Positions 24,026-41,464 of a stretch of 42,873 nucleotides of DNA are shown in pieces (position 1 is the stretch's first letter; each line of letters begins with the position of its first letter). Source of the DNA: a virus (taxonomy: Duplodnaviria; Heunggongvirae; Uroviricota; Caudoviricetes). Below the pieces are notes generated by a model. It was given only the letters and a program-made list of their open reading frames with translations, searched no databases and was not told where the DNA came from. Location of the stretch: the IMG/VR virus record IMGVR_UViG_2897369580_000001. The stretch is one strand, 5' to 3'. Position numbers and translations under genes: made by a program.

Positions 24026-24268
24026 AATTACCTCGAATAATAAAAACTGCACTATTTGCACAATTTATTATTCGTTTTCACGCCGCTGAGTTCTATAAAA
24101 AAGAAAAAACCTCCGAGGCAGGGTTTTGTTATGGCTCGTTAAATCATCATCCAACTTTTTAGACTGAACGGTGATACTTGCAAATATTTGAAAATATGGG
24201 CTGGAACCCTATCTTATGATGTGCCTGGTAATTTATATTGTTGGGTCTTTATATCATGAGGAATCACT

Positions 24269-24502
24269 ATGGGTACGTTAGGCAACCAGCCGTGCAGAAG
24301 TCGTTATGAGTTCGATGATTTTAATTTAGCCAATCGAGCTGCGGCTCTTACTAAGTTAGCAAAAGAAACTGGTGTATCGGTGGATACCTTAATCAAACTT
24401 GAAATTGCTATGCAACTGAATCGGCTCAACTCCATCCTTATCGAAAACGGTGACAAGATGGACGAGAATCTGGCAGGTATTGGCGAGATACTGCAGAAGT
24501 GA
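24269..24502 (+). CDS. Small putative HTH DNA-binding protein
   Basis: 77 aa; GAGGAA RBS; helix-turn-helix-like AALTKLAKETGVSVDTLIKLE; followed by terminator hairpin. Confidence 0.5.
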   Translation: MGTLGNQPCRSRYEFDDFNLANRAAALTKLAKETGVSVDTLIKLEIAMQLNRLNSILIENGDKMDENLAGIGEILQK

Positions 24503-24508
24503 GAGTAG

Positions 24509-24524
24509 CCCCTCTTCTGAGGGG
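24509..24524 (+). terminator. Intrinsic terminator-like hairpin
   Basis: CCCCTC-ttct-GAGGGG perfect stem, then TTGCACATTT. Confidence 0.45.
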
Positions 24525-24802
24525 TTGCACATTTAAAATATTAAGGGCGGTCTTCTTCACGTACACAGTCACCTGGTCGAATCGTTCACGCATACTGAGT
24601 ACAAAAAATCTCAACGATAAGATCAGGTTAGACCTGTATTTTCCAGAAACATATAGACGCCTAAAAAAACACTAAACTCATGATTATCATGTATGTTTTT
24701 ACTGGAAACATTGAACCATCCACAATACAGCGTAAAAAGCAAGCAATTCACAAGATTTTAAAGTGATTTATCTGGAAGACTTTACTACTAACAGTTAATA
24801 TC

Positions 24803-24845
24803 GTACCAGAAGTGCAGAATTTGCACTTTTACAGGAATGTGGTAC
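24803..24845. promoter_or_regulatory. Nested palindromes (operator candidate) upstream of ImmA-like gene
   Basis: GTACCA...AGTGCA-gaattt-TGCACT...TGGTAC about 60-100 bp upstream of the ATG at 24901. Confidence 0.4.
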
Positions 24846-24900
24846 GGAACATGCTGTCTATATTTCAACCAATAATCGTAATGCAGTAACTGGAGGAGCT

Positions 24901-25389
24901 ATGGCTACCAACCCAAGAGAGCACGCCCGGCGAGTGCTGGACACGTTCTGGTGCGGGCGTGGTTTCCCTGTTGATCCAGCGAAAATTGCTCACGACATGG
25001 GATTAGATGTTTTTATTACCGATCTTCCTGGGAAAGTTTCTGGCGCACTGATTAAACAAAAAGATCAAGATCCAGCGATCTTTCTAAACAGTGATGACAA
25101 CAAAGTTCGTCAACGTTTTTCATGTGGGCATGAGTTGGGGCATTACATCGCCCGGCAAGCATCGCATAGCGATGAATATGAGTACGTTGATTTACGTGGC
25201 GAAACCGCAAGCGCCGGAACGCATCCTGATGAAATTTTTGCAAACAAGTTCGCAGCAGAACTTCTGATGCCGGTAGATGAGGTCAGAAAACTGCACGCTG
25301 ACGGTCAACCAAGTTATATAATGGCGCATTATTTTGGCGTATCTGACGATGCGATGACTTATCGTTTAAAGAACTTGAGGTTGGGGTAA
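24901..25389 (+). CDS. ImmA/IrrE family metallo-endopeptidase (DUF955/COG2856-like)
   Basis: 162 aa; GGAGGAG RBS; HEXXH in ...SCGHELGHYIARQ... typical of ImmA/IrrE zinc peptidases. Confidence 0.8.
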   Translation: MATNPREHARRVLDTFWCGRGFPVDPAKIAHDMGLDVFITDLPGKVSGALIKQKDQDPAIFLNSDDNKVRQRFSCGHELGHYIARQASHSDEYEYVDLRGETASAGTHPDEIFANKFAAELLMPVDEVRKLHADGQPSYIMAHYFGVSDDAMTYRLKNLRLG

Positions 25390-25398
25390 CGCTTTAAA

Positions 25399-26004
25399 AT
25401 GCCATCGGATGACGATTTTAACAGCCGTTTCAAACAGGAAGTAGCACGCAGACTGAAGGATTCCCTCAACCTACACCGTCAGTTAGCAGAAGAGGTTGAG
25501 CCGGAGGACGATGAAACTCCGGTTCAGTCTCCTGACGAAGCTTCACCTCAGCCAAAGGTTTCGCACGCCCCCAAAAAAACGGCTGTCCGTATTCGCGGAA
25601 TAGCCAGAAAAAGAGCTGCCGAAGCTCGCAAAATGGCTGTAGCTGCGTCTAGCAAAAGAATTCCAACTGCTACACCCTCTCAACAAGTCACCCGTACTGA
25701 GAGTAAAATCTTGACCGAGTTCACATCTGTGAAACAGGTGAATTCACTTGATACCGAGCATGAGCGCAAACAACTCAACAACAAAGATTTTGAAGCAGAA
25801 ATCGCTCTAAAAAAACGATACGGGAAATGGTTCCTGATTATCCTTGCTTTCCAACTTCTGATAATGAATGGTGTATTTATTGCCGACGGCGCAGGTAAGC
25901 TGGAATTTGAGGATTTAACACTACAGTTGTACATGGGCGGTACTTTGACAGAGGTATTCGGCCTCGTGCTGGTCGTGACAAAATACCTTTTTAAACGCAA
26001 GTAA
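25399..26004 (+). CDS. Membrane protein with charged N-terminal region and two C-terminal TM helices (putative effector)
   Basis: 201 aa; starts 9 bp after peptidase stop; C-terminal hydrophobic helices; last 72 bp duplicated at 29355..29426. Confidence 0.65.
   Translation: MPSDDDFNSRFKQEVARRLKDSLNLHRQLAEEVEPEDDETPVQSPDEASPQPKVSHAPKKTAVRIRGIARKRAAEARKMAVAASSKRIPTATPSQQVTRTESKILTEFTSVKQVNSLDTEHERKQLNNKDFEAEIALKKRYGKWFLIILAFQLLIMNGVFIADGAGKLEFEDLTLQLYMGGTLTEVFGLVLVVTKYLFKRK
25933..26004 (+). repeat. Direct repeat copy 1 (3' end of membrane-protein gene)
   Basis: 72 bp, about 90% identical to 29355..29426; encodes MGGTLTEVFGLVLVVTKYLFKRK*. Confidence 0.9.
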
Positions 26005-26028
26005 CTCTCTCGGTCCAACAGTCTTTCG

Positions 26029-26050
26029 AAGGCCCTGATCAAAGGGCCTT
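26029..26050 (+). terminator. Terminator-like hairpin after membrane-protein gene
   Basis: AAGGCCCT-gatcaa-AGGGCCTT. Confidence 0.45.
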
Positions 26051-26248
26051 GATAAATTAGCAGTGCGTTGAAAACAGATAGTTATTCCCATCAGTTCCAA
26101 CGTAATACACATCAAAAAAATCACCATTCTTTTGCTCTAACGTCAACACCTACCCTTAAAAAAATAATTCTCCAAGAATGAGAAAGTTATTGTGTGTATT
26201 AGATAAGATATGAGCTGACACATCTATGGCGTGGAGCCAAATTTAATA

Positions 26249-26282
26249 TGACAGTCCGCTCTGTGCCATAAGCGGACTGTCA
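26249..26282. terminator. Perfect 12-bp inverted repeat hairpin between convergent genes
   Basis: TGACAGTCCGCT-ctgtgccata-AGCGGACTGTCA. Confidence 0.5.
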
Positions 26283-26466
26283 ATAAACAGATTCACTTGT
26301 AAATCTTGAAGCTATACATATTTACTTTCAATGATAAATAAAAGAACTATCCAAAAATCACTGAGAGCATATTTTAACTAACCCTCCGCTACTATTAACA
26401 TAAATTTCACCCAACCATAATTAAATTGATACATATAGCAACTTACCTTGATACGAATCATCTGGG

Positions 26467-27165
26467 TTATATTTTTCCATATTTTTTTCCGTCAAATCGA
26501 ATCATGCCAGGATCAAGAAAATTAATTAAATCGATTAACGCGTGCTGTATTCTGATTAGCCTTTCTTTATAAATTCCGATATCTCTTGTCATATTTATCA
26601 CTTCATTGTTTAAATCTAAAAAAAATGGCTCATTGATAAAGCAATTTTCCTTTGTGAAACTGCCGTAACCTATGCAATCAAATCCAGTATCTGTTGATAT
26701 CAGCATCTTTTCTGCAATAGCTCTCTGCTCTCCTATGAAAAACATAAAATACTGACCAAAGACGTCTGTTTGGATTAATGAGTTAATATTGTTCTGTAAT
26801 CTAATAAACTCCCTCATTTTTTTATTTTTTTCTAGGCTAAGGTATTGAATGTCTATGCGGGCAGCTTCTGTCCATGCAAAAAACTGGGAAAAAAGAAAAA
26901 CAGTATTGTTGATAACATAATCTTGTTGGCGCTTATTCCCATTATGATAAAACTCTTCAATGAACCCCAATTCTAATATATTATAAATACGGCTTTGTAA
27001 GTCTGAAGCTGAGCGAATTAACGGTTCAATATAGTACTGATGTTTTCTCCTTACATCCAGTGATTCATTGAGCTTGTTTATTCTATTCTGATTATAAGTA
27101 GATATAGCAATAGAGATTATAGCTATTGCACCACTAATAAAGCTTGAAATTAATGCCGTACCCAT
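26467..27165 (-). CDS. AT-rich membrane-anchored protein of unknown function (defense/exclusion candidate)
   Basis: 232 aa; N-terminal TM helix ALISSFISGAIAIISIAISTY; Asn/Ile/Lys-rich; sits in visibly AT-rich cassette. Confidence 0.6.
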   Translation of the reverse strand: MGTALISSFISGAIAIISIAISTYNQNRINKLNESLDVRRKHQYYIEPLIRSASDLQSRIYNILELGFIEEFYHNGNKRQQDYVINNTVFLFSQFFAWTEAARIDIQYLSLEKNKKMREFIRLQNNINSLIQTDVFGQYFMFFIGEQRAIAEKMLISTDTGFDCIGYGSFTKENCFINEPFFLDLNNEVINMTRDIGIYKERLIRIQHALIDLINFLDPGMIRFDGKKYGKI

Positions 27166-28352
27166 CTAAAAGTCCTTTGATTCTTGCTTGGTTAACAAAA
27201 TGACATAATTTTATTTAATGCCATAACAACTTAACAATATATCATAATATGATTATTATGGTGTAGCTTGTCGCATCTACGCTCCATTACAAACAGATGT
27301 AAGATATAACCTATATGTTTTAGCCAGCAAATTCGAAAGCATTCAAAGTAGTCTCATCGAACTCTCGAAACCCTATGTCTTCGGGTATAAAATATTTAAA
27401 TCCATTTGCATAATATCGACTCATGTTTATTATATTCTCCCCATTCACCATTAAGATTTGACATTATTTTCAACAATCGGTTATTGCAAGATTGAAATAT
27501 ATTTTTACTTGACACAATATTCCATGTAGCCCAGCGATTCGACTTACCCCCAACTATACGGACAATCTAAATTAAATCGATGATTTTTTGATACATTCTC
27601 CTCTCTCCATTACTTTATGTTTTTGTTCCCCAAAAATACCTTGCTCTCTAAAAAATAATTGTTCTTTAAGTTCAAAATCGAGATCTACATGAGCGTTAGA
27701 TACAAAGCTAATATGTTGAAATGTCTTTCCCCCCCCATAACGGCATTGTTATCTAAACTATGTTACACAAATATAATATTACCCTTTCAACGTAATCCAA
27801 GAATAAGATTAATGCCATTATATATATCATAAATATGATATTTTGTATATTTTTATCATTTAGCCTTGATTGTACTAGGTGTACTCTCAACGAAGTAGGG
27901 AAAGTCTGTTCCTCGCTCACAGCTGCCCTTCAGTAAGCGAAAAAATGCCTACTCGGTGCCATATACAGCCATTGTTATTAACAGCAGGGAATAATTCAAA
28001 ACTGAAATTAAATATCTACCTTTTACAGTAGAAATAGTTCCTCCAGGACACTATCCATTGCCGGGCACAATCACTCGGGGTATAACGATATAAAATATGT
28101 TCATGATAGTGCAGGTTCGTATATTAAGTTCAGCAGCGAAAACATGCCTTACAGGTTTCCGGTTTTGGGAGCGTCGTTACAGGATCCTGCGCATACCGTT
28201 CCCATCTGTTGAATTAAAGGTTTCACAGCCTTTGCCGATATCACCTTTTACCTTACCTGTGATGCGTTCAGTGCTCAGCGTTGTTTACTGTAGCTCTCGG
28301 GACTGATTACAGACCGCGTCTTAAAAACCAATCCTTACTCTAAAGGGAATTC

Positions 28353-29276
28353 ATGAGATTAAAATACTCAGTACTCTTACTCGCCATTGCCCTTACAGGC
28401 TGTGATAACAAAAAAGATGAGATCGGTTGTTCTTCGGAAATAACCCAGTCAGCTCTCATGGATTTATTAAAAAAATCTGCTTATGAAGGACTCTCTGAAC
28501 AGGTCGATAAATACCCTGATGTCACTAATCAGACCAAACGAAGCACACTGGACAAGATCAAACTAGCCATCTCTGAGATCTCCACAACATCAAGTGACAC
28601 GGGCAGCACAATGAAAACTTGTGAAGGGACCGTGACGATGACTCTATCTGCGAACGAGTACGTCCAGCTTTCAGATGCTTACAGAAAGAATTTTAATCGT
28701 AATCTCGATAAGCAAATGGAAAGCCTGTTTTTGGAGAACAACGCAAACGCCTTTTCAAAACGTATCACCTACACCGTGCAGGCGACCGACGATCAGAAAA
28801 ACGTTTTTGTAAAAACCTCTACTGATAATCCGATATCAGTGGGCGCCGCTTTACTGACATCGCTTTCCATTATCACCCCGATCGTTGAGCAGCAGAAAAT
28901 CCAGCAGGCTAAGGATGCCCAACAGAGTCAAATTGAAGCGGAACAACAGGTGCAACTCAGGGCGCAAGAACAGGCTAAGTATGAGGCGGAGAAGCAAATA
29001 GAGAGACAGGCACAACTTCAGCCGCAAAAAGCTGACAACCTTGATCAGTCCCGAATGGCATTTGCGAATGCCGACTCTGATTTGAGTACCGTCTGGAGCA
29101 AGTTAACCCCGGCGAAGAAAAAAGATTTGCTGCCTTCTCAGCGTCAGTGGATCAAAACTAAGGATGCTATGTGCGGTAAAGTTTCAATGCAGGGAACAGA
29201 TGCTGAAGTCAAGAAAATGGTCGACTGCCAGACGCAAATGACCCTTTCAAGAATCGCTTTCCTCAGAAACCAATAA
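28353..29276 (+). CDS. Lipoprotein with C-terminal DUF1311 (LprI-like) domain
   Basis: 307 aa; signal peptide with lipobox LTGC; Gln-rich coiled-coil middle; C-terminal ...QRQWIKTKDAMCG...DCQTQMTLSRIAFLRN two-Cys motif. Confidence 0.6.
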   Translation: MRLKYSVLLLAIALTGCDNKKDEIGCSSEITQSALMDLLKKSAYEGLSEQVDKYPDVTNQTKRSTLDKIKLAISEISTTSSDTGSTMKTCEGTVTMTLSANEYVQLSDAYRKNFNRNLDKQMESLFLENNANAFSKRITYTVQATDDQKNVFVKTSTDNPISVGAALLTSLSIITPIVEQQKIQQAKDAQQSQIEAEQQVQLRAQEQAKYEAEKQIERQAQLQPQKADNLDQSRMAFANADSDLSTVWSKLTPAKKKDLLPSQRQWIKTKDAMCGKVSMQGTDAEVKKMVDCQTQMTLSRIAFLRNQ

Positions 29277-29291
29277 CTGAAGTCTCCTTCA

Positions 29292-29323
29292 AGCTGGCGC
29301 CAGGTGTTAACCTGGTGCCAGCT
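29292..29323 (+). terminator. Terminator-like hairpin after lipoprotein gene
   Basis: AGCTGGCGCCAGG-tgttaa-CCTGGTGCCAGCT, 13-bp stem with 1 mismatch. Confidence 0.45.
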
Positions 29324-29354
29324 TAGTCATCAAGTGCATATGTAACTGTTTTAT

Positions 29355-29426
29355 ATGGGCGGTACTTTGACAGAGGTATTCGGTCTCGTGCTGGTCGTGG
29401 TCAAATACCTTTTTAAGCGCAAATAG
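29355..29426 (+). repeat. Direct repeat copy 2 (orphan 3' gene end; 23-codon ORF)
   Basis: About 90% identical to 25933..26004; preceded by in-frame stop; encodes MGGTLTEVFGLVLVVVKYLFKRK*. Confidence 0.9.
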
Positions 29427-29450
29427 AGTATTTCCGCCCCAAACAACCTG

Positions 29451-30269
29451 TCAAAATGCTGAATTAGCAACGGATATAGCCGACTTTTTCCCCATTACCA
29501 TCAATTTATCCAGTGTCATACTTCGCAGATTGTCGCTGTGGATCACCAGATACCCTGCCCGCTCAGCGATCTCTTTGAAAGCGTCAAAGGTCATCAGATG
29601 TTCGCCTTTGGCAACATGGCGCATCCCGGTCACTTTTCCATTTTTGATAGTGGTGATAAAAGAAAAATCTGGAATGGTTGGGTGATTTTCATCGAGTAGC
29701 AGGCAGTGGATGTATTCAATCGCCTCTAACATTTGCGTCTGTGACAGTTGTTCTATGTGAGAGACGGCGAAGCGTTGATGAATCATGGTGTAGGCATCGG
29801 GATACATCATGCCTTTCTTGCCGACCAGTATATTAACGGCATCACGCAAGGGAGTACGGTCATCGGTAGTTGTACTCCGCCTCTCTGGACGCTGGCTAAA
29901 ATAACAATCTTCCAGCTTTTCGAAAACTTCCCAGGCCTGTTCTGTTTCCAGCATTTTGGCATGGCGAGCTGCGCCGCGTTCTGTCCAGAGAATGAGGGAT
30001 CGGGTATGTTTAGCAACTGACTGACTATCTGTCAGTCTGTTTTTGAAGTCGCGTAATTCATTACCTTCCAGCTTAAAAAAATGCTTTCCTACGACAAATC
30101 TGGCGATGTTGCGCTTGAAGTTTTGCTGGATACCATTTACTTCCGTGCCATACAAACTGGCAAGCAATTCAGTAGTGATGACGGGAAGTTGGTTATGATG
30201 TAGCGGAGAAAGGGATTCCGCAGATATTTGGACTGTCATCGCAGTGGCCTCACTTAGTGTTTTTTTCAT
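29451..30269 (-). CDS. Phage antirepressor-like protein (ORF6N/Ant N-terminal-like domain)
   Basis: 272 aa from ATG at 30269; N-terminal ...LPVITTELLASLYGTEVNGIQQNFKRNIARFVVGKHFFKL... resembles Ant/ORF6N regions. Confidence 0.55.
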   Translation of the reverse strand: MKKTLSEATAMTVQISAESLSPLHHNQLPVITTELLASLYGTEVNGIQQNFKRNIARFVVGKHFFKLEGNELRDFKNRLTDSQSVAKHTRSLILWTERGAARHAKMLETEQAWEVFEKLEDCYFSQRPERRSTTTDDRTPLRDAVNILVGKKGMMYPDAYTMIHQRFAVSHIEQLSQTQMLEAIEYIHCLLLDENHPTIPDFSFITTIKNGKVTGMRHVAKGEHLMTFDAFKEIAERAGYLVIHSDNLRSMTLDKLMVMGKKSAISVANSAF

Positions 30270-30301
30270 CACCACCAGCGACGCCAATCATCTGGTGGTG
30301 A
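30269..30301. promoter_or_regulatory. 10-bp inverted repeat abutting antirepressor start codon
   Basis: TCACCACCAG-N13-CTGGTGGTGA; 3' arm contains the probable RBS. Confidence 0.4.
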
Positions 30302-30511
30302 GCTGTGCAGGGTTGGCGTAACCGGCTAAGTGAACCCGGCGCTTCCACAGAAGCCCCCACACAGCCCACCATAATGCGAATGTGGCCGTGCCTAACACAT
30401 AAAAAAACCGCTAACGCGGCTATGCGTCACTTAGATATCCGGGACGCCAATCCCGGCAACCGATTTTGCGGCTGCGCGGAAACTATAGCCCCGGACTTTT
30501 TCTAAGTCAAT

Positions 30512-40045: not shown

Positions 40046-41193
<1,148 letters not shown>

Positions 41194-41464
41194 TATGGCA
41201 CCTGTGTTGTTCTGAGGTGAGCATATCACCTCTGTTCAGGTGGCCAAATTCAGTAAACCACTTCAGTTCACCTGGTACTTGCCGATGGTACCAATGGCAT
41301 TATTGAAGCACGGAGCCGCTGCGAACTTGGGCTACACCTGCCAGAAAACATTAAGGTCACTCGGGAGAAATCGGCATTCACCCCACAAGAACTGATTACG
41401 CCTAATCAGAAATAAAAACTCACCATCGCTAGCATTGCGATTCACCAGACACCGGAGGATCACA

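Follow-up and report, generated by a model that had tools for sequence, protein, structure and literature searches.

Why does the 3' end of a phage gene occur twice in the same prophage, with 3.35 kb of other DNA between the copies? The window, by which we mean the whole 42,873-nucleotide stretch analysed here, is a prophage of E. coli ST131 (EC958, JJ1886). We argue that the repeat is the scar of modular recombination at a cargo hotspot of this prophage, and we put the probability of this reading at roughly 0.8. The repeat is real but is an ordinary leftover of gene-module swapping. The discovery is modest, since mosaic scars and cargo hotspots in phages are already well known.

The locus

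The repeated end belongs to gene X (25399..26004, + strand), which encodes a 201-aa membrane protein (phrog_5346) without a known family. Its hydropathy profile has two hydrophobic segments at the C-terminus. Directly 5' of X, RefSeq annotates an ImmA/IrrE (Peptidase_M78, CapP-like) metallopeptidase gene (24901..25389, + strand), which matches Pfam PF06114 (E 7.7e-18) and PADLOC capP (E 2.4e-25). The 3' flank of X (26005..26210) contains a GC-rich hairpin at 26029-26052, and this flank is common to two relatives, L010 and L013, whose cargo differs. Beyond the cargo, convergent with X, is an antirepressor gene with an ORF6N domain (29451..30239, - strand). It is annotated as such, is an anti-repressor by PHROG and matches Pfam PF10543 (E 1e-21). 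Upstream of it is a C4 antisense RNA gene (30291..30376, - strand; Rfam RF01695, 75.2 bits, E 5.9e-14), and in the immI region of phage P1 a C4 RNA gene is likewise found upstream of an antirepressor gene. The cargo site is therefore flanked by two convergent transcription units, the ImmA-like protease gene with X on one side and the C4-RNA-regulated antirepressor gene on the other. It is a variable moron or defence-gene hotspot in a prophage of the pandemic ST131 clone. No tRNA genes were found in the window, so a tRNA-type attachment site is ruled out.

The repeat

The first-pass annotation described a 72-bp direct repeat, and it is indeed there: 25933-26004 and 29355-29426 are identical at 65 of 72 positions and differ by 7 substitutions. 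If some mismatches are allowed the similarity extends 10 nt upstream, giving 81 nt at 89% identity (25923-26003 against 29345-29425), which is by far the longest direct repeat of the region. The similarity stops precisely at the stop codon. Copy 1 (25923..26004, + strand) is the functional 3' end of X and has the same sequence in every X-bearing relative examined. Copy 2 (29345..29426, + strand) contains a 23-codon ORF at 29355-29426. As the annotation had it, both copies encode MGGTLTEVFGLVLVV(T/V)KYLFKRK*.

Three of the substitutions fall in one codon (ACA -> GTC, Thr -> Val), three are synonymous, and one converts TAA to TAG. Four of the five altered codons are thus silent, which agrees with the claim that the differences are mostly synonymous. 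When 7 random substitutions were simulated the ORF stayed intact with at most one amino-acid change in only about 0.1% of trials. The differences look selected, and their silent bias fits two alleles that would have diverged while both were functional. This is the source the annotation proposed for the two ends, and the simulation supports it.

The DNA between the copies is two modules

The cargo was described as an AT-rich cassette with two genes and a long stretch without convincing ORFs. The two genes are there (26467-27165, - strand, 232 aa; 28353-29276, + strand, 307 aa), and about 1.65 kb is without an annotated ORF. The AT-richness holds for 26001-28000 (GC 0.32-0.35), but 28001-29500 has a GC content of 0.41-0.46, near that of the flanks at about 0.45-0.50. 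Similarly, the locus is a scar as proposed, but not that of a single inserted or replaced cassette, since the 3.35 kb is composite. We read it as two modules, A (26211-27966) and B (about 27944-29344).

Module A can be identified as P2-EC58 ORF1, an AT-rich gene already known as cargo at the Z/fun site of phage P2, and it still has inverted hairpin flanks of the P2 type. Positions 26211-27933 match P2-EC58 (AJ512683) at 87% nucleotide identity over 1.7 kb. The gene itself, ORF1 (26467..27165, - strand), encodes a 232-aa 'lysogenic protein' with an N-terminal membrane segment (phrog_5606), and is 87% identical in nucleotides and 93% in protein to ORF1 of the P2-EC58 Z region. Its only PADLOC match is a weak one to RTasTM (E 1.8e-5). 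The region upstream of ORF1 (27166..27901, - strand) is about 81% identical to P2-EC58, and we consider it non-coding because the indels between the two are of lengths not divisible by three. In the P2-EC58 record the ORF1 promoter is annotated within the counterpart of this region; a promoter scan gave matches no more numerous than chance. Besides P2-EC58 there were no phage-database matches to the cargo in near DNA, distant DNA or protein searches. An Rfam search of 25300-30400, judged by E-value, found nothing in the cargo, and its sole real match was the C4 RNA outside it.

The left boundary element (26211..26282) is of the P2 Z/fun type, with a core palindrome TGACAGTCCGC...GCGGACTGTCA at 26249-26282 that doubles as the terminator-like hairpin of ORF1 (z = -5). 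The right element (27902..27966) is a diverged inverted copy, and its outer part is common to relatives with other cargo. Aligned directly with each other within the window, the two elements are not significantly similar (245 of 2,000 shuffles score equally well). We pair them because both are the best matches to the P2 consensus: when the whole window is searched with the P2 boundary 35-mer, the two best hits are on either side of ORF1 and inverted relative to each other, at 26245 (- strand, 26/35) and 27902 (+ strand, 24/35).

Module B carries an LprI/DUF1311-family lipoprotein gene (28353..29276, + strand; RefSeq annotation; 307 aa; Pfam PF07007, E 4e-7), for whose product PADLOC gave no match. 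It is followed by a hairpin with a 15-bp stem (29291..29324). This gene adjoins copy 2 in most relatives.

Cargo turnover among relatives

If the locus is a hotspot then related prophages should carry other cassettes, and they do. At least five other cargo sets occur between X and the antirepressor gene on the same backbone, in L004, L006, L007, L010, L012 and L013. These prophages retain X and the remnant yet hold other cargo. That of L010 includes the defence gene PD-T4-3 (PADLOC E 1.7e-137), and that of L013 a SMEK-domain protein. A second cargo, in L010, is also found on a P2-like contig at 94% identity. Relatives that are 1-9% diverged have both copies of the repeat. The scar is older than this prophage, since it is also found in relatives at 3-9% divergence. 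The DNA between the copies, as these comparisons show, has been exchanged repeatedly since the scar formed. We regard the cargo itself as dispensable. IS elements sit inside it in two strains, and ORF1 is split in another.

How do the cassettes move? In this prophage family the X-antirepressor hotspot has arrays in which the boundary elements stand between one single-gene cassette and the next, in the pattern <><><>< in L010/L104. The same ORF1 cassette is bounded by them in a genomic island of strain M21816, and at the P2 Z/fun locus the same hairpin elements are found at the edges of dozens of different cargos. The left core is present in exact form in 118 viral contigs, where one side is conserved and the other falls into 55 sequence clusters. 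One can imagine from this that the elements, of about 35 nt, are the recombination sites of a dedicated, integron-like cassette-exchange system that works across unrelated mobile elements. We consider this rather doubtful. We know of no recombinase for such elements, and homologous recombination over the shared 35-70 nt is simpler. It must be said that scanning species-representative genomes for the left core gave 18 matches where about 17 are expected by chance by our own calculation; likely only the six or seven in Enterobacterales are real, and the scan carries no information on breadth.

The stranded tail

The left edge of copy 2 is the same in the window and in L004, L006, L007, L010 and L012, so copy 2 comes from one old event. 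It is a defunct gene end, displaced from what would have been an older allele of X. The annotation noted that the 23-codon ORF resembles small membrane toxins but called it more likely a remnant, and the relatives bear this out. A 1-nt deletion in L004, L007 and L012 causes a frameshift and a premature stop, and in L013 copy 2 is down to 13 nt. The 25 nt ahead of the ORF contain no Shine-Dalgarno sequence. We therefore reject a small membrane toxin gene, because the ORF has decayed in relatives and has no ribosome-binding site. A type I toxin-like peptide in particular fails on both its reading frame and its signals, since the ORF is not intact across the relatives and there is neither a Shine-Dalgarno sequence nor, as a sign of an antisense RNA partner, any Rfam match over the remnant.

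Could copy 2 have been retained for some function, either as a toxin-like hydrophobic peptide or as a 3' UTR or terminator of the antirepressor operon? The window, L006 and L010 do have an intact ORF, its product is a membrane helix followed by a basic tail, and the remnant follows immediately after the stop codon of the antirepressor gene. However, the frameshifts and the near loss just described are not what a functional element would show, and neither a terminator-like site nor an Rfam family was found inside copy 2. We consider retention for function extremely improbable. The pattern of decay shows copy 2 to be decaying junk.

A probable natural deletion product

Recombination across the repeat predicts junctions in which the cargo is gone, and strain GPEC172 has one. 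There X is fused to the copy-2 tail with nothing between. With this, both conditions that the first-pass annotation named as refuting, a lack of cassette polymorphism and a lack of recombinant junctions, have come out in its favour, and its interpretation is supported. The prophage is at the same chromosomal site, with 47.5 kb that is 99.983% identical to EC958, and it is otherwise near-identical but without exactly 3,422 bp. Upstream of the junction the sequence is that of copy 1, and downstream of it all seven variants are those of copy 2. A crossover in the 29-nt identical block (25933-25961 with 29355-29383) would remove these 3,422 bp and leave a chimeric but intact X. The copies thus seem to remain substrates for homologous recombination; the product is at hand in GPEC172, and the mechanism is what we infer from it. 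GPEC172 is the sole genome of such structure among 5,426 complete genomes.

It is worth considering the opposite direction, that the empty site of GPEC172 is ancestral and that the cargo of the ST131 prophage is a recent gain by recombination with a donor phage. The structure of GPEC172 is, after all, the one expected of the ancestral arrangement of X and the antirepressor gene. However, its flanks match the window except for 1 SNP in about 14 kb. With flanks this similar, an import would need its left crossover to fall within the same 30-40 nt or so, despite about 20 kb of homology on offer. Both copies are also already present in the relatives that are 1-9% diverged, and the Val tail is absent from every other full-length X sampled. 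A full-length X ends in the Val tail only in a protein that is one residue, that one, off the ST131 X. This protein (WP_134241516.1) was seen on 23 contigs, while the ST131 form is encoded on at least 1,000. We take the Val tail of full-length X to be a derived state. Recent gain is unlikely. The difference in GPEC172 is most simply read as a deletion between the repeats, with parsimony giving its direction.

How the scar probably arose

We argue for the following route. In the ancestor the end of X would have been about 24 bp from the antirepressor gene. Foreign DNA would have joined illegitimately within X, 81 nt ahead of the stop codon, and the old tail, copy 2, would thereby have been cut off next to the antirepressor gene. 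Copy 1 would have come with an intact X of a different allele, either in the same event or by a later homologous exchange. Against this route, no full-length X with a copy-2 tail was found in a diverged background.

A site-specific integrative element could produce the same picture. The 3.35 kb would be a present or former element that integrates at the 3' end of X and supplies a substitute for it, which we think quite improbable. The topology does fit exactly, with an intact gene with a foreign tail, then cargo, then the displaced native tail. The corollary that the repeats are attL and attR and GPEC172 an attB-like excision product has as little going for it in our estimate, even though an empty site with the native tail exists and its crossover lies within the 29-nt identical block. 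Among the relatives examined and in the window itself, the cargo has no integrase or other recombinase gene; IS transposases and nucleases were all that was found. What lies between the repeats varies among relatives, so it is not one element, and homologous recombination gives the same product as excision would.

The scar of modular exchange thus remains our preferred explanation. No recombinase was linked to any step of the scar's history or to the deletion. As to phage recombination functions, PHROG calls a 738-aa protein an 'exonuclease' but Pfam has no match for it, and no annealing protein was identified; for these reasons we do not claim that the recombination is phage-encoded.

What the locus is good for

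The locus gives a base-by-base view of cargo-gene turnover in a prophage from a pathogen clone of global importance. A gene-end leftover that is short and diverged suffices for a precise 3.4-kb deletion of cargo that keeps the gene intact. Cassettes have been exchanged between this site and unrelated P2-like phages, with at least two in common. Because of this turnover and exchange the site is a good hunting ground for new anti-phage or host-conversion genes. It is also a tractable system for studying how hairpin-bounded cassettes move.

Comparison with known systems

Morons and the mosaic junctions of temperate phages are products of modular exchange, and are reportedly a subject of work by Hendrix, Juhala and colleagues. 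The cargo here is like morons in several ways. It differs in base composition, though this applies to module A and not to the LprI part. It has a putative terminator of its own in the terminator-like hairpin and sits between convergent transcription units. Among collinear relatives it is present, absent or replaced, with at least five alternative sets and one empty site. As in phage mosaic junctions, one junction is exactly at a gene boundary. Unlike with typical morons, a gene end was left behind here as a diverged 81-nt duplicate, and a probable natural deletion between the copies can be pointed to.

The elements e14 and phage 21 integrate in the 3' end of icd and carry a replacement end. 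The likeness to these is close: an intact gene with a substituted tail, mostly synonymous differences, and a displaced pseudogene tail beyond. In end-regenerating integrative elements generally, direct repeats are likewise the gene end and its displaced remnant. Unlike e14 and phage 21, there is no integrase between the repeats here and the cargo varies among relatives. An integron gene-cassette array was considered separately and rejected, as no integrase is annotated beside the arrays and the boundary consensus ATGTCCGCTCCTCGCTCAAAGCAGACTGTCAGATT is without GTTRRRY.

This site has the cargo gene (AJ512683 ORF1) and the inverted boundary elements in common with Z/fun, a variable locus of P2-like coliphages (Nilsson et al. 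2004, Mol Biol Evol 21:1, as cited in PMC9122126). Z/fun has the tail-fibre assembly gene G on one side and the sheath gene FI on the other, whereas the backbone here is an unrelated one and the cassette is in its early region, between X and the ORF6N antirepressor gene, with a right element that has diverged (24/35).

Finally, Rousset et al. 2022 (PMC9122126) described anti-phage defence hotspots in P2-like and P4-like elements. They analysed the cos-proximal old/tin locus of P2, which is neither Z/fun nor this prophage family. Here ORF1 and the LprI-family protein would at most be candidate defence proteins. The organisation is nonetheless the same, a fixed backbone position with many alternative short systems that include known defence genes such as PD-T4-3.

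Phage mosaicism at a cargo hotspot

The repeat is a well-documented example of the mosaicism ordinary in phages, here at a cargo hotspot. The first-pass annotation read it as a recombination scar, and this is supported by the hotspot itself, by a remnant that is non-functional and by the existence of a product equal to recombination between the repeats. The finding is of modest interest, with a further, more speculative lead in the hairpin elements of the cargo.

The two repeat copies

The 72 bp at 25933-26004, the 3' end of the membrane-protein gene X (25399-26004, plus strand), match 29355-29426 at 65 of 72 positions, as first noticed. If a few mismatches are allowed the repeat extends 10 nt further upstream, to 81 nt at 89% identity, and is the longest direct repeat of the region. 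Similarity ends exactly at the stop codon. The differences were said to be mostly synonymous and to separate selected alleles. Five codons differ: three synonymously, one as TAA to TAG, and one as Thr/Val, which takes up three of the seven substitutions. When seven substitutions were placed at random, about 0.1% of trials preserved the ORF and altered no more than one amino acid, which means the tails diverged under purifying selection, within working genes.

Copy 1 is identical across all X-bearing relatives examined. Copy 2 has the same left edge wherever it is found. The window and the related prophage loci L006 and L010 have it intact, a frameshift and a premature stop interrupt it in L004, L007 and L012, and L013 retains only 13 nt; no Shine-Dalgarno sequence was found for its 23-codon ORF. 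This decay and the missing Shine-Dalgarno sequence rule out copy 2 as a gene. Together with the common left edge they make it an old, shared, decaying scar, the remnant that had been considered more likely from the start.

The site without cargo

Chromosomes of ST131 E. coli, among them those of EC958 and JJ1886, contain 24200-30400 at 100% identity; out of 5,426 complete genomes of the species, 403 have the stretch in full. When the two flanks were joined in silico and queried against all complete E. coli genomes there was exactly one continuous match, strain GPEC172 (chicken, USA). Here the antirepressor gene begins 24 bp after X, and the tail of X follows copy 1 as far as the ATG region, then carries every one of the seven copy-2 variants. 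This is a recombinant junction, X fused to the copy-2 tail with no cargo, and it places the exchange point inside the 29-nt identical block 25933-25961. The GPEC172 prophage occupies the same place in the chromosome. Over 47.5 kb the sequence matches EC958 at 99.983% identity, and with the repeat excluded a single SNP in about 14 kb separates the prophage from the window.

One can imagine the reverse, where the cargo was imported into a GPEC172-like ancestor. This would require a crossover in one short block although about 20 kb of homology was available, and relatives that are 1-9% diverged already have both copies. Import is therefore less economical, and deletion between the repeats is the economical reading. 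The GPEC172-type protein, which is ST131 X carrying Val in place of Thr, is recorded in 23 contigs; the parental form is in at least 1,000, and none of the other full-length X proteins sampled has the Val tail.

We suggest that an illegitimate join inside X would have produced the remnant. A different allele of X, intact, would have come to lie upstream, through that homology-plus-illegitimate event itself or through a later exchange. The deletion would have arisen by homologous recombination. It may instead have been site-specific excision, but none of the cargo versions examined has a recombinase gene.

Other cargo at the same site

Related prophages share the backbone but differ in the cargo at this site, a cassette polymorphism. 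Between X and the antirepressor gene, L006 (strain Z0117EC0036) combines IS1 with a GIY-YIG nuclease, L007 (strain C41) has a 266-aa protein next to what is left of a transposase, L012 has a T5orf172/GIY-YIG protein, and L013 has a methyltransferase as well as a SMEK-domain protein. L010 has four small cassettes, one of them PD-T4-3 (PADLOC E 1.7e-137). In L004 (strain TUM13936) ImmA and X, the pair at 24901-26004 of the window, are both missing; the LprI-family gene, remnant and antirepressor gene are present.

The cargo of the window

There is 3.35 kb of cargo between the repeats as claimed, but it is a composite of two modules and not a single cassette. Its AT-richness holds for 26001-28000 (GC 0.32-0.35) but not for the right-hand 1.4 kb. 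Module A (26211-27933) matches the Z-region of phage P2-EC58 (AJ512683) at 87% identity, and its gene ORF1 (26467-27165, minus strand, 232 aa) encodes a protein 93% identical to its counterpart there. Module B (about 27944-29344) consists of a lipoprotein gene of the LprI/DUF1311 family (28353-29276, plus strand) and its 400-nt leader. The non-coding DNA, put at about 1.6 kb before, comes to 1.65 kb, with no RNA family and no convincing further gene. A 43-codon ORF upstream of ORF1 (27320-27451, minus strand) is probably a decayed gene fragment, since our reading of the alignment puts a stop codon in the P2-EC58 copy. IS1A and IS3-family elements are inserted within the cargo of strains S9 (NZ_CP107122) and BCE-1 (NZ_CP188314), and a third strain has ORF1 split into 116-aa and 114-aa halves (L155 8069-8767), so the cargo is dispensable.

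Module A alone, 99.5% identical and with the same boundary elements, is found in a genomic island of strain M21816 (NZ_CP133923; L005 4001-5696). Its neighbours are dynamin-family and GTPase genes plus IS100, and no prophage context is visible in the locus.

It must be noted that CRISPR spacers match this region. In the sampled arrays, one type I-E spacer matches the opening 32 nt of the LprI-family gene without any mismatch (28353-28384; PAM ATG). In a spread sample of 60 from 572 matching E. coli genomes, 13 matched solely through this spacer, so many more genomes are likely to have it; we put the carriers at about 120, judging by the 123 records in the 90-95% identity band. Strain JX21CE8 has two adjacent spacers that perfectly match the ImmA gene (25109-25140; PAM ATG) and the X tail (25955-25986; PAM AAG). 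The latter target lies within repeat copy 1 and has 4 mismatches versus copy 2.

Boundary elements and the P2 Z/fun locus

The P2-EC58 GenBank record carries annotated left and right inverted repeats. The best two matches to the P2 boundary 35-mer on both strands of the window are at 26245 (26/35) and 27902 (24/35), inverted to each other with ORF1 between. The consensus is a hairpin of about 35 nt, ATGTCCGCTCCTCGCTCAAAGCAGACTGTCAGATT, and its inverted form. Elements lie at 26245-26282 and 27902-27966 in the window, L010 8847-11923, L004 660-3630, L013 13942-14011 and the IMG/VR loci L016-L132. The left core is a palindrome with a 13-bp stem, and looks like it doubles as the ORF1 terminator.

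The exact left core was found in 118 viral contigs, most of which look P2-like by conserved flank and size; in the one checked for genes it lies between the tail-fibre assembly and sheath genes. Surrounding sequence forms 5 clusters to the left versus 55 to the right. The 35-mer scan shows a single left and a single right element in 67 of 117 loci and several elements in about 20. In a stricter BLAST search, roughly half of the loci have an inverted copy at a distance of 0.7-5.8 kb downstream. At the P2 Z/fun locus these hairpins mark the ends of cargo cassettes, and in arrays they do so at the X-antirepressor hotspot as well: the four L010 cassettes are separated by right-left pairs 13-18 nt apart. 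The first of them is 94% identical to a cassette of a P2-like contig. With the ORF1 match to P2-EC58, this makes at least two cassettes common to P2 Z/fun loci and the unrelated prophage family of the window. Hairpin-bounded cassette exchange is a speculative explanation. The inverted repeats and their spread beyond P2 were reportedly noted already by Nilsson et al. in 2004, as the title and record of that paper indicate. A large survey exists, but of the other P2 hotspot, not Z/fun (Rousset et al. 2022, PMC9122126).

The flanking genes

The prophage has a tail of the sheath type, and its early genes resemble those of lambda: antiterminator Q, a DnaB-type helicase, cI/Cro-like regulators and an integrase. 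IS3-family ORFs with an rve domain (40046-41229, minus strand) lie near its exonuclease and Gp157 genes. X (201 aa, phrog_5346) belongs to no known family and has two C-terminal hydrophobic segments, the second encoded by the repeat. It starts 10 nt past the gene for a CapP-like ImmA/IrrE protease, and the protease and two-helix X could be a regulated effector pair. Across the cargo, convergent with X, is an ORF6N antirepressor gene (29451-30239, minus strand). Directly upstream of it is a C4 antisense RNA gene (30291-30376, minus strand; Rfam RF01695, 75 bits). This is the same arrangement as in the immI region of phage P1, and the window prophage has an immunity module of that type.
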